A program made the translations under genes and the position numbers. From Parcubacteria group bacterium (GTDB taxonomy: Bacteria; Patescibacteriota; Minisyncoccia; Moranbacterales; UBA2206), in assembly GCA_041661275.1 (NCBI GenBank), contig JBAZUU010000002.1:137148-201147 (forward strand): a stretch of DNA of 64,000 bases, written 5' to 3'. Of this stretch, positions 8,634-61,729 are shown one piece after another (position 1 is the stretch's first letter; each line of letters begins with the position of its first letter). Under the pieces are notes generated by a model, which made no database searches, was not told where the DNA came from, and saw nothing but the letters and a program-made list of their open reading frames with translations.

Positions 8634-8799
8634 TGCGTTACATTATGGCCTTACCCCTAGAATAAAGTCTTGTTGGTTATCCGACTTCTAGGGAATCGGA
8701 AAGACGTCTTCAATTTAATATTATAGCAGCTGTATTATTTTAGTCAAGTGCATTTATGCACAACTATAAAGTTATCCACAATCACTATAATAAAGGTAG

Positions 8800-8836
8800 T
8801 TGACGTGTACAAACAGTCATATATAATGTATATATG
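8800..8836 (+). promoter_or_regulatory. Sigma70-like promoter of the lexA-like gene (TTGACG-N16-TATAAT), apparently leaderless, overlapped by palindrome CATATATA-ATG-TATATATG
   Basis: -35 at 8800-8805 and -10 at 8822-8827. The ATG at 8834 is ~7 nt after the -10. Perfect 8+3+8 palindrome at 8818-8836. Confidence 0.45.
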
Positions 8837-9472
8837 AGTATAAAACTAACGCCAAAACAAAGGAACGTTTTAGAATTTATTTACACATTTTTAGAAAATT
8901 CTGGCTTTCCGCCGTCAATTTCCGAGCTAAAAGAAGAGCTCAATGTTTCCTCCAACCAATCAGTTCTGAATTTTTTGGATACGCTTGAAAAAAAGGGCTA
9001 TATAAAAAGAGAAAAGGATCAAGCAAGAGGGCTAAAAATTTTACCGATGGGAGCCAGGGAAATTGGCAAAGACGTTTTAATAAAAGTAGTTGGAACAAGT
9101 GCGGCTGGACCATATATAGAATCCTACGCAAATGCATTTTCGTTTTATCCAGTACAAAAAGGAATTTTGGAAAAAGAAAATATTGCTGATTCCCAGGAGA
9201 AAGTTTTTGTTATTCAGGTTCAGGGTGATTCAATGACAAATATTGGAATAGAAAATGATGATATGCTTTTGGTGAAAGAAGCTAAGGAATTTAAAAGCGG
9301 TGATATTGTGGTGGCGGAAACTGATGAGGGTGCGACTGTCAAAAGATTTATTGCTGAAGGTGGAAAAAGATATTTGAAGCCTGAAAATCCAAACTACGAA
9401 AATATTCTAATAATACCTGGCGAAGTGAGATTTAGAGGAAGAGTAATTTTAAATTTAAGTAAAATAAAATAA
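8834..9472 (+). CDS. lexA: LexA-family repressor (winged-helix DNA-binding domain + S24 peptidase)
   Basis: N-terminus matches the LexA DNA-binding domain (LTPKQRNVLEFI..SGFPPSISEL). QVQGDSM Ser nucleophile and a downstream Lys form the S24 dyad. Confidence 0.85.
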   Translation: MSIKLTPKQRNVLEFIYTFLENSGFPPSISELKEELNVSSNQSVLNFLDTLEKKGYIKREKDQARGLKILPMGAREIGKDVLIKVVGTSAAGPYIESYANAFSFYPVQKGILEKENIADSQEKVFVIQVQGDSMTNIGIENDDMLLVKEAKEFKSGDIVVAETDEGATVKRFIAEGGKRYLKPENPNYENILIIPGEVRFRGRVILNLSKIK

Positions 9473-9476
9473 CAAG

Positions 9477-11435
9477 ATGCTCGAAAAAAATTTGCCTGTC
9501 GAAATAATCAACAAAGTATTCCGTGATCCGGATATGCAATTTGGTTTGGCAAATTTTAGCGATGTGAAGCTGGACCAGGTTTTGAAAATTTTTGAAGGCA
9601 AGGAAGATAAGGGAAAATTCTATGCCAAATGCTTAAAGCGAGGGAAAGACATTTTGATCTATAATGAAGAAAAAAAATTAGGAAAACCTGAGGAGATAAT
9701 CCGCCAGCTCATGGTCTATAAGCTGGTTAATTTTTATAAATACCCTATCGACCGCATCGATGTTGAAGTCGACGTGCAATTCGGACGTGAAATTGGAAAA
9801 AAAAGAGCAGACATTGTGGTTTATCGGGAAGACTTGAAAACTCCCTATTTACTGGTTGAGGTTAAAAAGCCGGATGTGAAAGATGGATTGGGACAACTCA
9901 AAAGCTACGCCAATGCCACTGGCGCGCCGATCCTGATTCTGACCGACGGAAAAATACAAAATAATATTCTTAGAACGGATCCAAATCTTTTTGAAGACCT
10001 GCCGGAGATTCCAAAATTTAACGAAACAGTTGATGACGTACGCAAGGAAAAAATTTCTTACGCAGATTTAAAAGAAGTTGAAAACTTAAAACAGCTTATT
10101 TATGATCTTCAAGAAGTGGTGTTGGCAAACAGTGGCGTCGATTCATTCGACGAAATTTTTAAACTAGTTTACGCCAAACTTTATGATGAGCTGGAAACTC
10201 CAAGAAGTGATAATAGAAGATTTAGGGTTATCGCTGGCGTAACCAATAAGGAAAATCTAGCTAATATCTGTCGTCTATTCGAAGACGCTAAAAAAGAATG
10301 GAAAGATGTTTTCAAGCCTAACGATGAAATAGAAATTCCGGAAAATGTTATTGTTCCGGCAGTTTCACTTCTTCAGAAATTCCGACTTTTTGGTTCTAAC
10401 CTCCAAGTTATTGATGACGCCTTTGAATATCTCATAAACTTGGATGCCAAAGGAGAAAAGGGGCAATATTTTACTCCCCGTCATGTTATCGATATGGCGG
10501 TCAAAATGCTGGCGCCTACTCCCAAGGATTCCATAATTGACACAGCTGCCGGATCTTGCGGGTTTTTACTTCATGCTATGCAATATGTTTGGGACAAAGA
10601 GATTAACAAAGAAAAATACGGTGATGATTATAAAACCAGACAGAAAAATTATGCCGAAAAGCAATTATTTGGAATTGATTTTGATCCTCGCAGCGTAAAA
10701 ATTGGAAAAGCGATGATGCTCATTGCAGGGGACGGAAAAACCAATGTTACATTTGCAAATTCTCTTGATAGCGAAAATTGGAGCGATGACGCTCGGACGA
10801 GATTCCGCCCGTTTCTTGCTAACTCTAAGGACAGTGAAGAAAACCGAAAAAACCAGGAACGAATGACTGATTTTAATTTTGATATTGTTATGACCAATCC
10901 GCCCTTTGCCGGAGAGATAAAGGGCGTGCTTCTCAATCGCTATGACTTGGGTTTCAAATGGGATAAGGAATTTCAAAAAACATCGAAGCATCAAAACAAG
11001 GTTTCTAGGGATATTCTTTTCATTGAGCGAAATTTGAATTTCCTAAAGCCTGGCGGACGAATGGCAATTGTTTTGCCGCAAGGGGTTTTCAATAATACCA
11101 ATTCCGAATATGTCCGGCGGTTTATTATGAATAAAGCGAAAATCTTAGCAGTGGTCGGACTTCATGGAAATACTTTTAAGCCGCACACCGGAACAAAAAC
11201 ATCGGTTTTGTTTTTGGAAAAGTGGGCCGGAAAACCACTTGAAGATTGTCCAATTTTTATGGCTGTTTCGAAACGCGGCGGAAAAGACACGTCAGGAGAT
11301 TATGTTTATAGGAAAGATAGAGAGGGGAATGTGATGTATGATGCAAGTGGGAAGAAAATCATTGATCATGATTTGGATGAGATTGCGGAGGAGTTTTTGA
11401 AATTCACAAATGAAAGCTATCTTAAATTGCAATAA
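9477..11435 (+). CDS. Bifunctional restriction endonuclease-N6-adenine DNA methyltransferase, BcgI subunit A-like (Type IIB/IIG-like): N-terminal HsdR_N-type PD-(D/E)XK domain + gamma-class MTase
   Basis: ADIVVY..LLVEVKK nuclease core (~aa 110-135). AdoMet motif I DTAAGSCGFLL precedes motif IV NPPFAG. 652 aa. No helicase/HsdR gene nearby. Confidence 0.75.
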   Translation: MLEKNLPVEIINKVFRDPDMQFGLANFSDVKLDQVLKIFEGKEDKGKFYAKCLKRGKDILIYNEEKKLGKPEEIIRQLMVYKLVNFYKYPIDRIDVEVDVQFGREIGKKRADIVVYREDLKTPYLLVEVKKPDVKDGLGQLKSYANATGAPILILTDGKIQNNILRTDPNLFEDLPEIPKFNETVDDVRKEKISYADLKEVENLKQLIYDLQEVVLANSGVDSFDEIFKLVYAKLYDELETPRSDNRRFRVIAGVTNKENLANICRLFEDAKKEWKDVFKPNDEIEIPENVIVPAVSLLQKFRLFGSNLQVIDDAFEYLINLDAKGEKGQYFTPRHVIDMAVKMLAPTPKDSIIDTAAGSCGFLLHAMQYVWDKEINKEKYGDDYKTRQKNYAEKQLFGIDFDPRSVKIGKAMMLIAGDGKTNVTFANSLDSENWSDDARTRFRPFLANSKDSEENRKNQERMTDFNFDIVMTNPPFAGEIKGVLLNRYDLGFKWDKEFQKTSKHQNKVSRDILFIERNLNFLKPGGRMAIVLPQGVFNNTNSEYVRRFIMNKAKILAVVGLHGNTFKPHTGTKTSVLFLEKWAGKPLEDCPIFMAVSKRGGKDTSGDYVYRKDREGNVMYDASGKKIIDHDLDEIAEEFLKFTNESYLKLQ

Positions 11436-12264
11436 ATATATGAATAACCCAAAAAGTACCTTGGGTCAGAAATGGATAAATTTTTTAAATGCTGTTTTTA
11501 GTCCAGTTCCAATTTTTTCATTATTAGGCGGATTAGGGCTTCTTTATTTGTCGGTGCACTATAAAGATGATGGCAGATTTTCAATCCTAATTAATTTGGC
11601 GGGCTCTCTTTTGATTGGTATCGGCGGTGCCTTTATTAAAGACAGATATGTTGAACTATCAAATGAATCAATTCTTATAAAAAAAGGTCAATCGGCAGTA
11701 AGAAATTTAGAATCTATCGCAAAACAAATAGAACAAATAAGATCTTGGCTTAAGTTTTTTATTTCTAGTAAAACATCAGATAAAAGAGATCTTGAAGAAA
11801 TCAATCGTCATTTAAGCACTACCGAAATGAACATTGCATCTGGGTTAGCAGATTGGATTGATATTGTTCCAGAGTTAAATAAAAAGGCGGAAGAAATGGC
11901 TGAAAAAGCAAAAAGCTATGAAGAAGTTGTTAAAACCTATGTTGAGGAATTATTTAAAAATAAAAAGAAGCTTTTAGAAGTGGGAGAGAATAAAAAACTT
12001 AAAGAACGATTACAAGAAAGCATAAAAAACCTGGAAAAAGAAGTAAGAGATTTAAAAAAATATAGGCCAGAATTTACTGCGAGTGGAATAATTAGTAGCT
12101 CATCCTTTGGTTCAAATGGAAACGGTCTTTCTTATTTAAATCGAAACTCTCTTGCACGTGGCCTATCAAAAACTTGTTCAAATTGCGGCAGAGTATTCGA
12201 AGATGATATAAATAGGCTTACCATCGGTCCGGATTTGTGCGAGGAATGCAGAAAAACAATATGA
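11410..12264 (+). CDS. Membrane-anchored coiled-coil protein with C-terminal CxxC..CxxC zinc ribbon, unknown function; alternative start at 11439
   Basis: Two N-terminal TM helices, a long K/E-rich predicted coiled coil, and CSNCGRVF..CEEC. Overlaps both flanking RM genes by 26-28 nt (translational coupling). Confidence 0.5.
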   Translation: MKAILNCNKYMNNPKSTLGQKWINFLNAVFSPVPIFSLLGGLGLLYLSVHYKDDGRFSILINLAGSLLIGIGGAFIKDRYVELSNESILIKKGQSAVRNLESIAKQIEQIRSWLKFFISSKTSDKRDLEEINRHLSTTEMNIASGLADWIDIVPELNKKAEEMAEKAKSYEEVVKTYVEELFKNKKKLLEVGENKKLKERLQESIKNLEKEVRDLKKYRPEFTASGIISSSSFGSNGNGLSYLNRNSLARGLSKTCSNCGRVFEDDINRLTIGPDLCEECRKTI

Positions 12265-13598
12265 TAAACTGTTCAATAATCCAAAAATCCCATCTTGAAG
12301 GCGCGATGCGATTAGATGCTGAATATTATTGTAGCGATTCATTAATCGGGTCTAATTTTCATCTAGGCAAAGACGTTGTTTCTTTTGTTCAGTATGGTAC
12401 ATCAAAAGAATTAAACGAGGAAAATAGAGGCTATCCGGTTTTGCGGCTCAATGAATTTGAGGATTGGTTCGCGGGACAACCGACGAAATATTGCAATAAG
12501 ATTAGTGAACAAACTTTTAATGGTTTAAAGCTCAAAAAAGGGGATGTATTAATTTGCAGAACCAATGGGAATCCTAAGCTTGTAGGAAAAGCTGCTCTCG
12601 TTGCGGAAAATACCAACATTGCTTTTGCTTCGTATTTATTTAGAGTTCAAGCTGATTCTTTAAAAATTAATTCCGCCACACTTACTGCGTTTTTAAATTC
12701 TAAAATCGGCAGAGCAGAGATTGAAAAATTTATTATGCCTAGCATTCAATCTAACTTCAGCCCTGCTCAATTTAGACAAATTAAAATACCTATTTTTCCA
12801 CCAGCCTTACAAAAAGAAATTGAAACGCGTTTATTTGACTCATATGAACTTTTAGCCGATTCGAAATCTTCTTATCAGCAAGCTGAAGATTTACTATTAG
12901 AAGAGCTGGGATTAAAAAATTTTGATTTTGAAAAAATATTGTCATCAGTTGTTAATTATTCCGATGTTCTAGAAGCTGAAAGAATAGACGCAGAATATTT
13001 TCAGCCGAAATATGAAAAACTGATTTCGAAAATAAAGGAAAGAAATTATAAAACCTTGCCGGAAATTATAGAAAATGTGCCTGCTGTTTTTAACGCCGCT
13101 TCAAAACCGTCAGAAAATTTCAAATACGTAGAGTTATCAAATATTAATCCTTCCGTTGGAATAATTGATGGTTTTTCAGAAGTATCAGGAAGAGAAGCGC
13201 CAGGAAGAGCGAAAAGAATATTAAAGTCTGGCGATGTAATAGTTTCAAGTGTAGAAGGATCGCTGGAAAAAGTTGCGCTGGTTGATAAAGAGCAAGATGG
13301 ACATCTTGCATCAACAGGATTTTTTCAATTGCGAAGTGATAAAATTTTGCCAGAAGTTTTACTTGTTATAGCCAGGAGTTTGGTTTTTCAAATGCAACTC
13401 GAAAAGCAATGTGCTGGAACAATTCTTACTGCCGTGCCAAAAGAGGCGATAAAAAATATTGTTGTACCAATCTTACCGAAAGAAACGCAGCAAAAAATCG
13501 CTGATCTTGTGCGACAGTCGCACAAAGCGCGGAAAAAGGCGAAAGAGCTTTTAGAAGAAGCGAAAAGGAAAGTTGAAGGGATGATAGAGAATAAATAA
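12237..13598 (+). CDS. hsdS: Restriction-modification specificity subunit (HsdS/BcgI-B-like, two target-recognition domains)
   Basis: Duplicated halves (RLDAEYY.. / RIDAEYFQP..). Central and C-terminal conserved helical spacers (IPIFPPALQKEIETRL..; ILPKETQQKIADLVR..). Confidence 0.85.
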   Translation: MRGMQKNNMINCSIIQKSHLEGAMRLDAEYYCSDSLIGSNFHLGKDVVSFVQYGTSKELNEENRGYPVLRLNEFEDWFAGQPTKYCNKISEQTFNGLKLKKGDVLICRTNGNPKLVGKAALVAENTNIAFASYLFRVQADSLKINSATLTAFLNSKIGRAEIEKFIMPSIQSNFSPAQFRQIKIPIFPPALQKEIETRLFDSYELLADSKSSYQQAEDLLLEELGLKNFDFEKILSSVVNYSDVLEAERIDAEYFQPKYEKLISKIKERNYKTLPEIIENVPAVFNAASKPSENFKYVELSNINPSVGIIDGFSEVSGREAPGRAKRILKSGDVIVSSVEGSLEKVALVDKEQDGHLASTGFFQLRSDKILPEVLLVIARSLVFQMQLEKQCAGTILTAVPKEAIKNIVVPILPKETQQKIADLVRQSHKARKKAKELLEEAKRKVEGMIENK

Positions 13599-14210: not shown

Positions 14211-14861
14211 ATGCGCATAATTGCTAAAGCGATACAATATCTGATGCTGAAGATTATGAAAAGGCTTGGTCCTTCGGATGATGACAGGCCGGCTGTTGCT
14301 GCGGCGGACCAGTTGTTGGATAAATTGCTTCCGTCTGCTTTCGCGGTTTTTCGCGATGAGAGGTTTAGGGAAGTGTGTAATTTTGGGAAAATCAGCCAGG
14401 TCGAGCATGATAGGATCTTTAACGAGCTGGAAGTGTCCGCTATCATCCTTTGTCAGTTTTGTATTGATGATCGTATGGCGATTATCGGAAATCGCGATTT
14501 TCATTTTTGGGAAACCGTCCGCGAGAATATGCCAAAAGTTTTTGTGGATAAGCTTCTGGAATATGGCGTGAAAAAAAGCGATGCTGACTTATATTTCGAC
14601 CTTATCAAGATGAGACATGACCAATATTCGAAAATCGCCGATGGCAACCGCGATCATATGGAAAATGACAAGCTATTTTCAGAATATAAAGATAGCCAGG
14701 CAGCTATGGATACGCTAAATAGGGTGCAGGCGATAATTGTGGGTACGGCGGATCATATTCGCCGGGGAAAATTAAAAAAAGGGGACGAATTGATGCGGCT
14801 GCTCAGGTCATGGCTGTTTCCCCTTGATATGGAAATTTCAAAATTTATTCGGAAACTATAA
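14211..14861 (+). CDS. Hypothetical protein (216 aa), no recognisable family; locally GC-richer
   Basis: Longest ORF in the region with a coding-like profile. Overlapping minus-strand ORFs are judged spurious. Confidence 0.45.
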   Translation: MRIIAKAIQYLMLKIMKRLGPSDDDRPAVAAADQLLDKLLPSAFAVFRDERFREVCNFGKISQVEHDRIFNELEVSAIILCQFCIDDRMAIIGNRDFHFWETVRENMPKVFVDKLLEYGVKKSDADLYFDLIKMRHDQYSKIADGNRDHMENDKLFSEYKDSQAAMDTLNRVQAIIVGTADHIRRGKLKKGDELMRLLRSWLFPLDMEISKFIRKL

Positions 14862-14890: not shown

Positions 14891-15017
14891 GGCCAAGTAC
14901 CTTTAATTACGTCCCGGTTAATTAAAAATTAACCACAGTAGTATAATAAATTAACTACGTGGCAGGCGGGATAAATAATTAACTACTTACATAATAAAAA
15001 ACCAAAAGTTATCCACA
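14891..15017. repeat. Island gene-terminal motif, copy 2 (extended), ending in AAGTTATCCACAGACGG (DnaA-box-like TTATCCACA at 15009-15017)
   Basis: GGCCAAGTACCTTTAATTACGT ... AATTAACTACTTACA ... ACCAAAAGTTATCCACAGACGGATGACCATTTTA is shared with the copy at 18261-18345. Confidence 0.6.
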
Positions 15018-15220: not shown

Positions 15221-15300
15221 AAATCGATCCATGAGACCTGGGAAAGTCTTTCTTGTTAGAAATAACGGGGAGAGTTATCCACAGGCGATAATATTGCCAT

Positions 15301-15348: not shown

Positions 15349-16950
15349 ATGCTTGAAAAACAATTAGAAAAATATTTTAACTTTACCGAATTTCGTCCCG
15401 GTCAAAGGGAAATCGTGGAAACTATTATGTCCGGTCGTGATGTGGTGGCTCTTATGCCGACTGGCGGGGGAAAATCTCTTTGCTATCAATTGCCGGCGAT
15501 CATGAGTGACAAAATTTCGGTCGTCATTTCTCCGCTTATCGCGCTTATGAAAGATCAGGTAGACAGTCTCAACGCGCGCGGAATTCCGGCCACTTTTATA
15601 AACAGCAGTTTAACTTCAGATGAAATAGGAAAACGAATCGAAGACATTAAAAATAACCGGACAAAAATAATTTATGTGGCGCCGGAAAGATTTGGAAACG
15701 CCTCCTGGCAAAAATTGTTTTCCGAACTCGATGTTTTTTTGTTCGCGGTTGATGAAGCTCATTGTGTGTCGCAATGGGGTCATGATTTTCGTCCGGACTA
15801 TCTGGCCATAAAAAAATATATTGCCAACTTGAAGAATCGTCCGGTGGTGGCTGCCTTTACGGCGACGGCCACGCCGGAAGTTAAAAATGATATCATCGAA
15901 CGCCTGGAACTGCAAAATCCCGAAGTTTTTATCCGTGGTTTTGATCGGCCAAATTTGAAATTTTTTGTGGAAAGCAACTTGAAACCGAAGGAAAAATACG
16001 CGGAAGTTTTGCGGATAATTAAGGCTATGGCCGGATCGGGGATAGTTTACGCTTTGACGCGAAAAGACACTGAATTTATCGCCGAATTTTTGCGTCAAAA
16101 TAATATAGTAGCCGCGGCTTATCACGCGGGAATGGAGGCGGAGAAGCGAAAACGGATCCAGGAGGAATTTATGGACAATAAATTCAAGGTAATTGTGGCA
16201 ACCATTGCTTTTGGCATGGGAGTGGACAAAGCGGATATCAGATTTGTGATCCACAGCGGTATGCCCGGAAGCATAGAAGGCTATTATCAGGAAGCCGGAA
16301 GAGCGGGACGCGATGGCGAACAAGCCTTTTGTATCTTGCTTCATGGCAAAAAAGACGTCAGTACCCACAAGTTTTTTATTCGTATGAGTCAGGACGAAAT
16401 GTTTCTGCAAAATAAGACATGGGAAGAGATAAAAAGGGTAGTTGGCATAAAATATGACCGGCTGGAAAAAATGATCGAATATGCTACTCGCCCCAATTGC
16501 CGCCGAAAGATGATCTTGAAATATTTTAGCGATCCGGATTACGAAAGACATAAGGAAAATTGCCGAGGGTGTGATTTTTGCCTGGATTGGAAAAAATCAG
16601 CCGGAGATGCCCAGAAAAGAAAGGAGGCTATCCGTGGTAACAAAAGTTTTCTATCTTCCACTGTTAAAATATCAGCCGATTATTATGAGAAAGGAACGTC
16701 TCTTGAAAATATAGCCAGGATAAGGGGACTTGGTTTAAGGACAATCATTGATCATCTGATCGACTGGTACGCCACCGGAGGAAATCTGCGAGTGGAAGAT
16801 CTTATCAACGCGGAAGAAGAAGGGCTGATAATTTCTGCTATTGAAAAGATCGGAAGCCGAGACAGGCTAAAGCCGATAAAAGATATTCTGCCGGAAGAGA
16901 TCGGTTATGAAAAGATAAAGCTGGTGATAGTTAAGTGGGAAAGAAAGTAG
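15349..16950 (+). CDS. recQ: ATP-dependent DNA helicase RecQ (short form with zinc-binding RQC and C-terminal HTH-like region)
   Basis: FRPGQREIVETIMSGRDVVALMPTGGGKSLCYQLPA; DEAHCVSQWGHDFRPDY; C..C..C.C zinc motif. Confidence 0.9.
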   Translation: MLEKQLEKYFNFTEFRPGQREIVETIMSGRDVVALMPTGGGKSLCYQLPAIMSDKISVVISPLIALMKDQVDSLNARGIPATFINSSLTSDEIGKRIEDIKNNRTKIIYVAPERFGNASWQKLFSELDVFLFAVDEAHCVSQWGHDFRPDYLAIKKYIANLKNRPVVAAFTATATPEVKNDIIERLELQNPEVFIRGFDRPNLKFFVESNLKPKEKYAEVLRIIKAMAGSGIVYALTRKDTEFIAEFLRQNNIVAAAYHAGMEAEKRKRIQEEFMDNKFKVIVATIAFGMGVDKADIRFVIHSGMPGSIEGYYQEAGRAGRDGEQAFCILLHGKKDVSTHKFFIRMSQDEMFLQNKTWEEIKRVVGIKYDRLEKMIEYATRPNCRRKMILKYFSDPDYERHKENCRGCDFCLDWKKSAGDAQKRKEAIRGNKSFLSSTVKISADYYEKGTSLENIARIRGLGLRTIIDHLIDWYATGGNLRVEDLINAEEEGLIISAIEKIGSRDRLKPIKDILPEEIGYEKIKLVIVKWERK

Positions 16951-17222: not shown

Positions 17223-18242
17223 ATGAAAAATAATATATTAAATAACAATAATTCCGGCGAAATAATTATATATGAAGGCGCGGATGGGGCGCCTAGCATT
17301 GAAGTGCGCGTTGAGGGTGAGACGGTGTGGCTGTCACAATCACAACTCGTTGAGCTTTTTCACTCAAGCAAGGCAAATGTGAGCGAGCATATCAAGCACA
17401 TATTTAAAGAGGCTGAATTAAGCCAAGATGCAGTTGTTCGGAATTTCCGAACAACTGCGAGTGATGGAAAAAATTACAACATTGAGCACTACAATCTCGA
17501 CATGATTATCTCTTTGGGTTATAGAATAAAGTCGGATATTGCCACACATTTTCGCCAGTGGGCGACTTCGCGACTTCGTGAATACCTCGTTCAAGGATTC
17601 ACAATGAATGATGAGTTTTTGAAAAACAATGGCGGTGGCTTATATTGGAAGAAACTCTTGTCTCGCATCCGTGATATTCGATCCAGTGAAAAGATGCTGT
17701 ATAGACAAGTCCTGGATCTCTATGCCACAAGCGCGGATTATGATCCTAAATCTCTACATTCAATTAAGTTTTTCAAAATTGTGCAAAACAAATTGCACTA
17801 CGCCGCGCATAAACAGACAGCATCAGAAGTTATTTATAATCGCGCCGATAGTGATAAAAAATTTATGGGTTTGACGGTTTTTGCAGGAGATTTGCCAGTA
17901 CTCGAAGAAGTGAGAATTGCTAAAAATTATTTGTCCGCGCAAGAGTTGGAAAGATTGAACAGACTTGTCTCGGCATATTTCGAATTGGCGGAATTGCGCG
18001 CTATGGATCAGCAAGTAATGCATATGGCGGATCATATTGCATCTTTAGATAAATTACTTTCTGATTACGGCGAAGGTGTTTTGATTGATGCTGGAAAAGT
18101 AACGCATAAAAAAGCCATAGAAAAAGCAGAAAGTGAATACAAAAAATATCAAACTAAAACACTTTCGCCCGCAGAAGGAGCGTATTTGGAAAGCATTAAA
18201 ACTTTAGAGAAAAAGGTTAAAAATAATAAACCAAAGAAATAA
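17223..18242 (+). CDS. RhuM-family (virulence-associated) protein
   Basis: ETVWLSQSQLVELF..HIKHIFKE..KNYNIEHYNLDMIISLGYRIKS matches the RhuM family signature block. Confidence 0.8.
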   Translation: MKNNILNNNNSGEIIIYEGADGAPSIEVRVEGETVWLSQSQLVELFHSSKANVSEHIKHIFKEAELSQDAVVRNFRTTASDGKNYNIEHYNLDMIISLGYRIKSDIATHFRQWATSRLREYLVQGFTMNDEFLKNNGGGLYWKKLLSRIRDIRSSEKMLYRQVLDLYATSADYDPKSLHSIKFFKIVQNKLHYAAHKQTASEVIYNRADSDKKFMGLTVFAGDLPVLEEVRIAKNYLSAQELERLNRLVSAYFELAELRAMDQQVMHMADHIASLDKLLSDYGEGVLIDAGKVTHKKAIEKAESEYKKYQTKTLSPAEGAYLESIKTLEKKVKNNKPKK

Positions 18243-18260: not shown

Positions 18261-18363
18261 GGGTCAAGTACCTTTGGTTTTGTAATTAATTACTTGCATA
18301 TACGAAAGACCAAAAAGTTATCCACAGACGGATGACCATTTTAACCGGTTGGTTAAAATGGTC
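18261..18363. repeat. Island gene-terminal motif, copy 3, with DnaA-box-like TTATCCACA (18318-18326) and perfect palindrome GACCATTTTAACC-GGTT-GGTTAAAATGGTC (18334-18363)
   Basis: GGGTCAAGTACCTTTGG..TAATTAATTACTTGCA..ACCAAAAAGTTATCCACAGACGGATGACCATTTTA. Confidence 0.6.
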
Positions 18364-20528: not shown

Positions 20529-22292
20529 TTTATTCCAGGTAAGAAGTTGTGAGATTTGAAATTCCTCGATGGGAATTTTTTTATCTTCCGGGTCTTGTCT
20601 TTGGGCGGTGATGATTTCATTTTTCGGTTTCAGATAAAAAGCAGTCAGGATGCCAAAATTCTTTTCTTGAATTATATCGTAAGTCGCAAGTATACTGCTA
20701 AGGCCTTTTTTGCCATTTAGGACGGATTCTTGTTCTATGTAAAAATAATTTCCCTGGTCATAAGCTTTGTCGGCGGAAAAGATGTCATAATAATCAATAC
20801 CTCTTTTTTCCAGATAATACCAATAAACCGGCTCATACTCATGGGTTGTCCTTATGCATATCGGATAACCGTTTGCTTTGTATTTTGATTCGATATAGTC
20901 GACGATAGGCAATTGCTGGCTCAGGGTGACGCGGGTATTGTCCGGAAAAATGTCTTCCGTTTGAGCTCTGAATGTTTCGTTTTGAGCTCGGGAAAGTTGG
21001 TTAAAACTGTCTTTTATTCTCGATATGTTGGAATAAGACAAGACTGCGACAATAATGACGGGAATGACAAAGGTTAATTTTTTTCGGGGAAAATACAATT
21101 TTTCCAGCAAGAAACCGAAAAAGATTATGGCCAGAGGCGCGACCGGCAGGAAAAAACGCGGGTAGACATAGAGTCCGTCATAAAGAACCAGAAAGTAACA
21201 GGCGAATGAAAAAATTATCCACAGAAGGATAAGTAGGAGGAGATCTCTGCGTCTCTGGTCGCGTTCTGTTTTTAGGTTAAGTAACAGGATAAAAAAAGAA
21301 GCAATGAAAAGGACAAAGGGCAAAAAAGTTACAGCTAACTTTTTCTGGCAGGATTTGCACAAAATCCCCCAGGAACTTCCGGTGAGATGCGAGCCGTTTA
21401 TGTTGTCAATGCCGCTGTTGATCAAAAAATAGTTACCGACATTATAGCGAATATCCTGGACAACTTTTTCCCATGATTTTTTGTCTTTTGATTCTGTTTT
21501 TTCCGTTTCATTGCCGGAATGGAAGGGCAGTCTTTCCAAAAAATAGCTCAAATTTTGTCCTCCGGTTTTTACATCGCTGATGACGACAGGAGAATAAACC
21601 GCTAAAAATATTGCTATCGCCGCAAGCCATATTTTCCACCGGAAACGCGGGCGCTTGATAAGGAGGAAGAAAAAAGTGACAGCGGGGACTATAAAAAAGG
21701 CGTTAAAATGAATTTGTGAAGTAAGGGCGACAAAAAAAGCGGCCAAAAGAAACCAATATTCTTTTTTTTCTTCTTTTTCCGAAACGCTTTTCAAAAGCGC
21801 GTAAAAGCAAAAAAGAACCAAAAAAGGCAGAACATCGGGACTCCAGGAAAAGCGGGAATATAAAACGAGGTACGAGGAAAAAGAAAAGATGGCCAAAAGC
21901 GCCAGAGATAAATTTTTCGAAAAATATCTCCGGCAGAAAAAATAAAAAAGTGGCATGGCCAGAATTCCCAAAATCAACACTTGGGCGGCGTGCCCGGCCG
22001 GAGTGTTGCCAAAAATGAGGGCGCTCAAATATTCCATATAGTAGAAAGCCGGACCGAGGCGCAAGGATCTTCCGCCGCCGGCTGTTGGTCCCAAAAGCGG
22101 CAAATTTCCCGGACCGTTTTGGACGGCATTGGAAACGATATTGATGTCATAAGTCTGATCAATCTCAAAATGGAGCCAGTCACTGAAATGGTATGAACGC
22201 AAAAAAATCCCTGTTAAAAAAATAACAAGGAAGATGGCCAATGTCAGTTTGTTTTGTTTGGCTTTTTCAAATGAAGATCGAAAAAATTTCAT
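20511..22292 (-). CDS. GT-C fold glycosyltransferase, PMT/ArnT-like (GT39/GT83-type), paralog 1
   Basis: N-terminal block IFLRSYHFSDWLHFEIDQ..NLPLLGP..LRLGPAFYY shared with three paralogs; polytopic. Confidence 0.8.
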   Translation of the reverse strand: MKFFRSSFEKAKQNKLTLAIFLVIFLTGIFLRSYHFSDWLHFEIDQTYDINIVSNAVQNGPGNLPLLGPTAGGGRSLRLGPAFYYMEYLSALIFGNTPAGHAAQVLILGILAMPLFYFFCRRYFSKNLSLALLAIFSFSSYLVLYSRFSWSPDVLPFLVLFCFYALLKSVSEKEEKKEYWFLLAAFFVALTSQIHFNAFFIVPAVTFFFLLIKRPRFRWKIWLAAIAIFLAVYSPVVISDVKTGGQNLSYFLERLPFHSGNETEKTESKDKKSWEKVVQDIRYNVGNYFLINSGIDNINGSHLTGSSWGILCKSCQKKLAVTFLPFVLFIASFFILLLNLKTERDQRRRDLLLLILLWIIFSFACYFLVLYDGLYVYPRFFLPVAPLAIIFFGFLLEKLYFPRKKLTFVIPVIIVAVLSYSNISRIKDSFNQLSRAQNETFRAQTEDIFPDNTRVTLSQQLPIVDYIESKYKANGYPICIRTTHEYEPVYWYYLEKRGIDYYDIFSADKAYDQGNYFYIEQESVLNGKKGLSSILATYDIIQEKNFGILTAFYLKPKNEIITAQRQDPEDKKIPIEEFQISQLLTWNKLFSTP

Positions 22293-61559: not shown

Positions 61560-61729
61560 AAAAATGGTATAAAGTATACGGTATTTAGTAGCTAGTATGG
61601 GAATTATAGCATAAATATCGAGGCTGTGGATAACTTTCTTTGACTTAATTTTTAATCAATGAAAGAATAAAAATAACAGTTCTTTCTTCGAATATGATTG
61701 GTGAGGCGTGGAATTAGCCCAAACTCTAG

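Follow-up and report, generated by a model that had tools for sequence, protein, structure and literature searches.

What is the gene for a membrane-anchored protein doing between the catalytic and specificity genes of a restriction system? The question is raised by a stretch of DNA from the metagenome-assembled genome of a Parcubacteria group bacterium (order Moranbacterales; assembly GCA_041661275.1, contig JBAZUU010000002.1, forward-strand positions 137,148 to 201,147). We call this whole stretch of 64,000 nucleotides (nt) the window, and use its own numbering below. The gene, which we call X, is a translationally coupled member of an operon that runs from a LexA-like gene through a nuclease-methyltransferase gene (M) and X to an HsdS-type specificity gene (S). 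An earlier note on this DNA had taken X for an obligatory partner of the two enzyme genes that flank it. We find instead that the X family is portable, accompanying restriction systems of whatever type and also found in other defense and mobile contexts, a phage among them, and that X is probably a portable anti-invader accessory rather than a subunit of this particular enzyme.

X is a real gene. It is an uninterrupted plus-strand open reading frame (ORF) ending at 12264, with 32 full-length homologs at 39-57% identity. Many related loci keep both its frame and its place between M and S, and the loss of frame that the earlier note had named as grounds for doubt was not found among them. That note also described overlaps at both ends of the gene. 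The one at the 3' end is present, the X stop codon (TGA, 12262-12264) and the hsdS start (ATG, 12261) sharing the letters ATGA, and this hsdS start is backed by homolog N-termini (MINCSIIQKSHLEG in the window, compared with MNNYSIIQKSQLEG in locus L001). The one at the 5' end exists only for the less likely start, ATG 11410, and disappears with ATG 11440, which lies 4 nt past the M stop codon (11433-11435). The start is most likely ATG 11440, giving a protein of 274 amino acids (aa), because all 28 aligned homologs begin about 11 residues before an invariant tryptophan (W12 in this register), because the 10 additional residues from ATG 11410 have no counterpart in homologs, and because NCBI holds an identical 274-aa protein, 'hypothetical protein [Parcubacteria group bacterium]'. 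Both starts lack a Shine-Dalgarno sequence at a good distance; the 4-nt spacing between M and X fits re-initiation.

The X family and its neighborhoods

When 1.84 billion cluster representatives (clusters at 50% identity) were searched exhaustively with a profile, 545 clusters fell in the X family at E <=1e-3, and 372 at E <=1e-10. Among the best 150 of the 545, most are about 260-310 aa long and match end to end. By species-representative genomes, members belong to Parcubacteria-related groups (Moranbacteria), Saccharibacteria, Melioribacteraceae and Chloroflexia, and source names extend the family to Planctomycetes, Deltaproteobacteria and Thiodiazotropha. About 100 X loci were gathered, and their neighbors were labeled by seed-based hidden Markov model searches and Pfam. 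We distinguish a close clade (at least 33% identity, 47 distinct sequences) from a distant clade (below 32% identity).

In about 40 of the 47 distinct close-clade loci, X is inside or directly beside restriction genes, and the remainder are mostly contig fragments. In most related loci the genes are tightly spaced, and the distance from the upstream stop to the X start is -14 to +16 nt. The window arrangement of a LexA-like gene, a nuclease-methyltransferase, X and S recurs in L001, L005, L008, L009, L014 and L033. The other main arrangement is a classical type I operon, in which X separates a helix-turn-helix (HTH)-HsdM gene from HsdS, and HsdS is followed by a variable gene, HsdR and often YgjP (loci in Table 1). 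Enzymes of other types are accompanied as well. Among type II loci, X follows a methylase and Tsp45I in L022, where it is 53% identical to the window protein, and follows a LexA-like gene, two N6_N4 methylases and an HNH endonuclease in L026. Among type III loci, it precedes Mod, Res and a DpnI-like gene in L011 and lies between Mod and Res in L052, while in L044 it comes after a SMODS-SLATT pair.

A neighbor-joining tree without bootstrap nests the type II and type III X proteins among the type I cases, and contains two subclades (A and B) that broadly follow the two main cassette kinds. A LexA-like gene is present in 9 of the 9 subclade-A loci having enough upstream sequence. The remaining inserts in these operons (RhuM, Bro-N and unknowns of 150-449 aa) all differ between loci, so that X is the only recurrent cargo. 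As candidates for a second conserved partner we compared the genes of the interval between S and R (244-449 aa), a 150-aa gene in L005 and a 216-aa ORF in the window, and found them mutually unrelated. Two smaller recurrences may be recorded here. An unannotated protein of about 155-170 aa (…FENLMKLVYLGNWMANANR…) is encoded directly 5' of X in three type I loci (L013 7461-7928, L036 1470-1985 and L057 2-256), and a small membrane protein (…FLIFI(I/V)PGF(V/I)(A/T)VWTFRYFT…KKGDFEF…) is encoded 3' of X in L028 (6801-7136) and L039 (1413-1676), two loci in which X has no M and S neighbors.

In the distant clade, restriction genes occur within 1-3 genes of X in 4 of 6 long contigs. Gene orders on long contigs include an Mrr-X pair; an N6_N4 methylase, HinP1I and X; X, a KAP NTPase, a C5 methylase and NgoFVII; and X near a type I system in a DUF5906 element. 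Transposases are also found. Shorter contigs carry the orders SDH-protease-X-AbiTii and PHP/Schlafen-X-RT-like-Hsp70-like, where RT stands for reverse transcriptase. A complete copy of X, including the C-terminal ribbon discussed below, is present on a 46.9-kb SU10-like phage contig. This 300-aa protein (P0161) has the transmembrane (TM) hairpin and the CxxC...CxxC pattern, and its gene lies between the portal and major-capsid regions. The phage X is listed in 37 collection blocks, in 35 of which the longest contig is 20-50 kb.

An obligatory partnership with the catalytic and specificity genes is not borne out by these neighborhoods. Close homologs at 34-53% identity are found in type II and type III operons and by SMODS-SLATT, and distant ones beside Mrr, HinP1I and NgoFVII systems and in a phage. 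From the other side, homologs of the nuclease-methyltransferase (42-43% identity) occur without X or fused to S. A Klebsiella pneumoniae plasmid has a 42.5%-identical nuclease-methyltransferase with an S gene 8 nt on and no X. The closest plasmid homolog, on Picosynechococcus pAQ6 (L101 3977-7516), is a single 1179-aa protein at 43% identity, which extends well past the methyltransferase match, suggesting a nuclease-methylase-specificity fusion. Since methyltransferase homologs work with S in the absence of X, or fused to S, we regard X as an accessory and not as an obligatory partner. We considered whether a 263-aa gene after S on the Klebsiella plasmid might be an X relative, and rejected it (hhalign probability 0.3%). 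Neither 72,556 plasmids nor 50,697 phage records contained a tblastn match to X.

Protein architecture and searches for relatives

The earlier note had described X as two N-terminal TM helices, a long coiled coil and a terminal zinc ribbon. The first element stands, as does the cysteine pattern of the last. Kyte-Doolittle windows exceed 1.3 at residues 22-51 and 55-78 (numbering of the 284-aa reading), and AlphaFold2 (AF2) models both helices at a predicted local distance difference test (pLDDT) of 88-95. TM1 contains an invariant proline (Pro22). TM2, with a column identity of 0.70, contains a small-xxx-small motif (GSLLIGIGGAF) whose spacing appears typical of helix-helix packing. The N-terminal 20 residues have a mean net charge of +2.7 and the loop between the helices has about 6 residues, from which, by the positive-inside rule, both ends of X are predicted to be cytoplasmic.

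The juxtamembrane core is 77-80 residues long in all members and includes the motifs KKGQSA(I/V)RNL, LEEINRHL and SGLADWIDIVPEL. Invariant residues in the close family include K82, G83, S85, A86, R88, N89, E120, R123, H124, D138, W139, D141, P144 and E145, and those invariant over the close and distant clades together are W12, G83, A86, R88, E120, W139 and D141. Of the coiled coil of about 150 K/E-rich residues claimed earlier, the helical character holds, while the length falls to about 130 aa (78-207 of 274) and the K/E richness to the distal 60 or so. The proximal 78 aa, with their specific invariant polar residues, are therefore not a generic coiled coil. A crude heptad test marginally beat shuffles in a few windows (p 0.004-0.05) and was not significant in most.

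The CxxC-N17-CxxC ribbon (Cys 256, 259, 277 and 280 in 284-aa numbering) has all four cysteines at least 90% conserved in the family. AF2 predicts two short strands in it, and the Pfam Zn_Ribbon_TF match is weak (E 0.089). The ribbon has been lost repeatedly, being absent from P0023 and P0024, whose L001 cassette is complete in other respects, and, in the distant clade, from P0250 and P0234; it is thus dispensable for the core function.

That X fits no described restriction accessory, as the earlier note had supposed, was upheld in every collection searched. Pfam, NCBIfam, PADLOC and PHROGs gave nothing above threshold, a profile search of all PDB sequences gave nothing meaningful, and Foldseek, run against PDB and BFVD with the AF2 models of whole X and of its soluble part (mean pLDDT 75), gave no match below E 0.1. 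We dismissed sub-threshold matches to DUF4795, Macoilin, Rad50, SMC, the ZorA tail, GldL and a holin as coiled-coil noise within compositionally biased helices, which is where all of the recurring weak matches fall (Rad50/SMC, ZorA tail, GldL, holin, XaxA/AhlC and CT398). Such noise is also all that Pfam, NCBIfam and PADLOC offer for X as a type I subunit (HsdR, HsdM or HsdS).

Several more specific identities were considered and rejected. Conserved R and H residues prompted a comparison with HEPN/PrrC-like RNases, for which there was no Pfam HEPN match and no HEPN structure in the Foldseek results; the R and H of X are adjacent (NRHL), as against Rx4-6H in HEPN, and NRHL is not kept in the distant clade. 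X matches neither Pfam SLATT_1-6 nor any PADLOC effector, as a SLATT or other catalogued two-TM effector would, and the SLATT_4 of L044 is a separate neighboring gene. A ClyA-type alpha-pore-forming toxin fares no better (NF033928, 17.4 bits vs a cutoff of 125; AhlC, Foldseek E 1.7-2.3). The JGI label of the homolog P0015, ElaB/YqjD/DUF883, finds no Pfam DUF883 match in X, whose anchor is an N-terminal hairpin and not a C-terminal one. X likewise has no HTH family match in Pfam that would make it a controller (C) protein or transcriptional regulator, and the candidate regulator of the operon is the separate LexA-like gene.

The host operon and its surroundings

The nuclease-methyltransferase, the gene called "RM catalytic" in the earlier note, has an N-terminal HSDR_N_2 PD-(D/E)xK nuclease domain followed by N6_Mtase, and matches the PADLOC model MTase_I PDLC03034 over its full length at 602 bits. 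There is no HsdR in the window, and we take its layout of a nuclease-methyltransferase plus S to resemble that of type IIB enzymes such as BcgI. From the LexA-like gene through M and X to S, the spacing is a 4-nt gap, a second 4-nt gap and then the ATGA overlap. Given the single strong promoter upstream, and an internal terminator not being found, we read these four genes as one operon; the promoter and terminator scan detected no comparable plus-strand promoter and no convincing terminator inside it.

The -10 element of this promoter ends 6 nt 5' of the LexA-like ATG, a distance that suggests a leaderless or near-leaderless mRNA. A TTGAC..palindrome..TATAAT layout is common to the promoters 5' of the LexA-like gene in L005, L008, L009, L014, L026 and L033. 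In related cassettes the spacer palindrome takes the form GACCATATGGTC, GACTAAATAGTC or CCCGACTATTTGGTCGGG, and in the window the DNA 5' of the LexA-like gene (8690-8833) has a degenerate copy at the same place. The LexA-like repressor probably has its operator in this palindrome. The LexA-like gene is directly 5' of the methyltransferase in the window and in the six loci that share its arrangement, and 5' of the type II cassette in L026, at whose head it stands as a free gene (273-929). In L028 (1814-3676, minus strand), LexA DNA-binding and S24 peptidase domains are fused to an N6_N4 DNA methylase in a protein of 620 aa. LexA-like control seems to be a recurrent feature of restriction cassettes in the Candidate Phyla Radiation (CPR), and cassettes headed by such a repressor point to DNA-damage control of restriction in these tiny-genome organisms.

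A perfect DnaA-box 9-mer, TTATCCACA, is present in 7 copies in the window, compared with 0.62 expected. At least four copies (8772, 15009, 15275 and 18318) are intergenic and 5' of the LexA-like, RecQ and glycosyltransferase genes. L026 and L033 also have the 9-mer 5' of the LexA-like promoter, as does L008 in reverse orientation, and in these CPR genomes some factor may bind it close to promoters.

The region resembles a small defense island (Table 1). RhuM or Bro-N genes are also inserted beside X in L013, L015, L031 and L034. The cassette edges have only a mild GC dip, and a tRNA search for island boundaries found none there.

Table 1. Features of the X cassette, of the X protein and of the surrounding DNA, with two groups of related loci (positions in the window unless a locus is named; residues in 274-aa numbering)
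Feature	Position or locus	Strand	Basis or remark
HNH endonuclease, 82 aa	8385-8633	-	Divergent from LexA-like gene; own strong promoter-like site 8747-8720
Sigma-70-like promoter, TTGACG-16-TATAAT	8800..8827	+	Best of operon; 11/12 match
LexA-like repressor, first cassette gene	8834..9472	+	Pfam LexA_DNA_bind E 3.7e-18, Peptidase_S24 E 3.1e-26
Nuclease-fused N6-adenine methyltransferase, 652 aa	9477..11435	+	Pfam HSDR_N_2 1.4e-23, N6_Mtase 1.9e-37
Gene X, 274 aa	11440..12264	+	Homolog N-termini and NCBI call; alternative, less likely start 11410 gives 284 aa
X membrane hairpin	11494..11643	+	TM1 about residues 19-40, short loop, TM2 about 45-68
X juxtamembrane helical core, residues 69-146	11644..11877	+	Most conserved part of X; mean column identity 0.74
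X distal K/E-rich helices, residues 147-207	11878..12060	+	Predicted helix-turn-helix; sequence variable, length 54-61 aa
X Ser/Gly/Asn low-complexity linker	12061..12168	+	Predicted disordered, pLDDT <50; column identity 0.33
X C-terminal CxxC-N17-CxxC ribbon	12169..12261	+	Cys246, 249, 267, 270
HsdS-type specificity subunit, two target-recognition domains	12261..13598	+	PADLOC Specificity_I models, down to 4.8e-34
ORF 3' of hsdS, 216 aa	14211-14861		No family match
RecQ-type helicase	15349-16950		Pfam
RhuM-family gene	17223-18242		PADLOC candidate PDC-S05, E 1.5e-148
TTATCCACA copies	8772-8780, 14543-14551(-), 15009-15017, 15275-15283, 18318-18326, 21215-21223, 61625-61633(-)		Minus-strand copies marked (-)
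Classical type I loci with X	L010, L012, L013, L015, L016, L031, L036, L040/41, L046, L049, L050		
Phage X loci	L097-L099		Logan contigs of 46,872 bp and 33,911 bp

Function of X and comparison with known systems

The reading that we favor, at a probability of roughly 0.35, is that X is a membrane factor facing the cytoplasm, which acts autonomously at the site of foreign DNA entry, by a logic like that of superinfection exclusion. X would self-associate through the small-xxx-small motif of TM2 and its helical hairpins and, on its own at the inner face of the membrane, would add a further layer of protection against invaders. It would most likely hold or obstruct incoming DNA, or the machinery of phage ejection, at the point of entry, as superinfection-exclusion proteins do, to the benefit of any nuclease made alongside it. 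The work would be done by the invariant TM2 and the juxtamembrane core, with the ribbon as an optional binding add-on. Such a model would account for the indifference to restriction type (including the methylase-less Mrr), the phage copy, the absence of an enzymatic domain and the advantage of co-transfer with a nuclease. A membrane defense that acts on entering DNA has a precedent in SNIPE (doi 10.1101/2025.11.03.685801).

Several observations weigh against this reading. X has no homology to any characterized protein that would support a specific mechanism. Strongly basic regions are lacking, also in the cytoplasmic part (mean net charge -0.9 for the core and +1.2 for the ribbon), and hence direct DNA binding is not indicated. 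The X subclades track cassette kind, a pattern also compatible with co-evolution with a bound partner. Some distant members adjoin housekeeping genes (lnt, polA), and restriction genes are the commonest defense genes, so the association in the distant clade could be partly generic clustering in islands. Known superinfection-exclusion proteins, moreover, are usually encoded by prophages and not embedded in restriction operons. A more ambitious form of the idea would make X a universal membrane-coupling factor for restriction endonucleases, its core marking the site where DNA crosses or holding the entering DNA or ejection complex, which would give types I-IV a spatial layer of self/non-self discrimination and which phages would have captured for superinfection exclusion; we consider this doubtful.

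The leading alternative is an abortive-infection membrane effector, in which an idle X would sense some cue through its core or ribbon, oligomerize through the glycine-rich TM2 and the hairpins, and collapse membrane integrity. It would form a second line of defense upon the failure of restriction, with a logic like that of PrrC, which adjoins EcoprrI, or of two-TM effectors such as SLATT. A single-gene module with a TM hairpin and small-xxx-small motifs would suit this role, as would the presence of X in defense islands by AbiTii, SMODS-SLATT, an RT-like gene and a KAP NTPase, and its carriage by a phage. There is also some sub-threshold likeness to alpha-pore-forming toxins (XaxA model, E 0.0022, 17 bits vs 125; AhlC, Foldseek E 1.7) and to a holin PHROG (E 0.017), although all of these resemblances are non-significant and fall in compositionally biased helices. 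The best-conserved part of X is a specific juxtamembrane domain rather than a pore-like segment, no sensor domain is identifiable, the sole candidate (the ribbon) being dispensable, and constitutive co-transcription with the methyltransferase offers no obvious trigger. We regard an abortive-infection role as possible, if somewhat unlikely.

In most close-clade loci X lies between M and S and its translation is coupled, which invites the idea of a membrane tether or scaffold, whose cytoplasmic helices and ribbon would hold the restriction-modification complex at the inner membrane, off the nucleoid and near entering DNA. Spatial discrimination of this sort would be SNIPE-like, and membrane anchoring prevents autoimmunity in SNIPE (doi 10.1101/2025.11.03.685801). 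The subclades that track the two cassette kinds would fit a tether, and the variable distal helices and ribbon loops could adapt to different partners. It is harder to see how X proteins of 34-53% identity would serve enzymes as structurally unrelated as Tsp45I, an HNH endonuclease and type III Mod/Res or, in the distant clade, Mrr and HinP1I; X is moreover found in a phage and next to SMODS-SLATT with no restriction gene present, and the same methyltransferase/S family exists without it. We therefore think a tether unlikely. A regulator or restriction-alleviation factor, modulating expression, assembly or activity of the enzyme (for example upon DNA damage, together with the LexA-like repressor), would make sense of the LexA-like gene at the head of the subclade-A cassettes, and zinc ribbons often bind nucleic acids or proteins. 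Yet X is membrane-anchored and has no HTH, other DNA-binding domain or basic surface, LexA is lacking in subclade B and the distant clade, and the ribbon can be lost, all of which leaves this role improbable. Scaffold and regulator are alike weakened by the fact that X accompanies any restriction type and shows neither an HTH nor another DNA-binding feature. Finally, X could be a generic membrane protein or selfish cassette cargo with no part in defense, linked to restriction by hitch-hiking only, as the distant members that neighbor lnt, polA or radical-SAM genes might suggest. Linkage within 1-3 genes, usually in the same operon, in the great majority of close-clade loci and most long distant-clade contigs makes this very improbable.

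The known genes closest in kind to X are extra genes embedded in restriction operons. PrrC is a non-hsd gene carried inside the EcoprrI type I operon. The restriction-linked non-hsd genes rloA/rloB of Campylobacter jejuni are conserved within a type I locus (PMC2928727). X is like these in its setting and has no sequence or domain relationship to them, being membrane-anchored and without an ATPase, nuclease or HEPN domain. Genes inserted in type I loci have mostly been described as lying between hsdR and hsdMS (PMC12255300), whereas X lies between M and S and also accompanies type II, III and IV systems.

SNIPE is membrane-bound, combines DUF4041 with a GIY-YIG nuclease, and defends during genome injection (doi 10.1101/2025.11.03.685801). 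X shares with it an N-terminal membrane anchor and an elongated cytoplasmic part; SNIPE, however, has one TM helix, DUF4041 and its own nuclease, while X has a TM hairpin and, by Pfam, neither DUF4041 nor a nuclease domain. We thus rejected X as a SNIPE, and any nuclease for X must come in trans. Superinfection-exclusion proteins such as T4 Imm, HK97 gp15 and lactococcal Sie2009 are small inner-membrane proteins without enzymatic domains, found on mobile elements and phages. X resembles them in its membrane anchor, its lack of an enzyme domain and its phage-borne homolog. What unites them is function and not any common sequence signature, and X showed no homology to them; it is also the larger protein, with a conserved cytoplasmic domain, and is found mostly in restriction operons.

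The COG1579-type proteins HP0958 and CT398 resemble X in having a helical hairpin followed by a four-cysteine ribbon, but they are soluble and lack the TM hairpin of X, and kinship was rejected (Foldseek match to CT398, 4ilo_A, E 2.5, probability 0.41, TM-score 0.30-0.34; no Pfam match). Proteins of this type are not known to be linked to restriction. The gene order of the window is like that of the methylation-associated defense system MADS, in which a regulator, a methylase, the small genes mad3/mad4 and an S subunit follow one another (doi 10.1101/2023.03.30.534895), and the best NCBIfam matches of the window M and S are the MAD2 and MAD5 models. Membership was rejected on score, M reaching 300 against a MAD2 cutoff of 720 and S reaching 137 against a MAD5 cutoff of 400; X has no PADLOC mad match, nor do the 216-aa ORF and RhuM. 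MAD6, MAD7 and MAD8 are mandatory in the model of the MADS authors (doi 10.1101/2023.03.30.534895). Downstream of S, no gene (216-aa ORF, RecQ or RhuM) has a size or Pfam domain matching these three, RecQ being judged without a MAD6-8 model run.

From the genes embedded in restriction operons, its closest known kind, X differs in being membrane-anchored, placed between M and S, unrelated in sequence or fold to anything described, and at the service of all restriction types. There is a modest chance that it is categorically new, as a general membrane-coupling module for restriction. Restriction-modification is the commonest bacterial defense, and a membrane-anchored accessory common to all its types is not known to have been described. 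The finding is more general than the earlier note supposed. The family is large (545 clusters), spans very different phyla, is unnamed in domain and defense databases and is regularly part of restriction operons, where its stop and start codons often overlap those of its neighbors. Should X act where DNA enters or serve as a back-up effector, a new single-gene component of defense would be open to experiment, and the long-standing idea of a membrane-based organization of restriction could be tested concretely.

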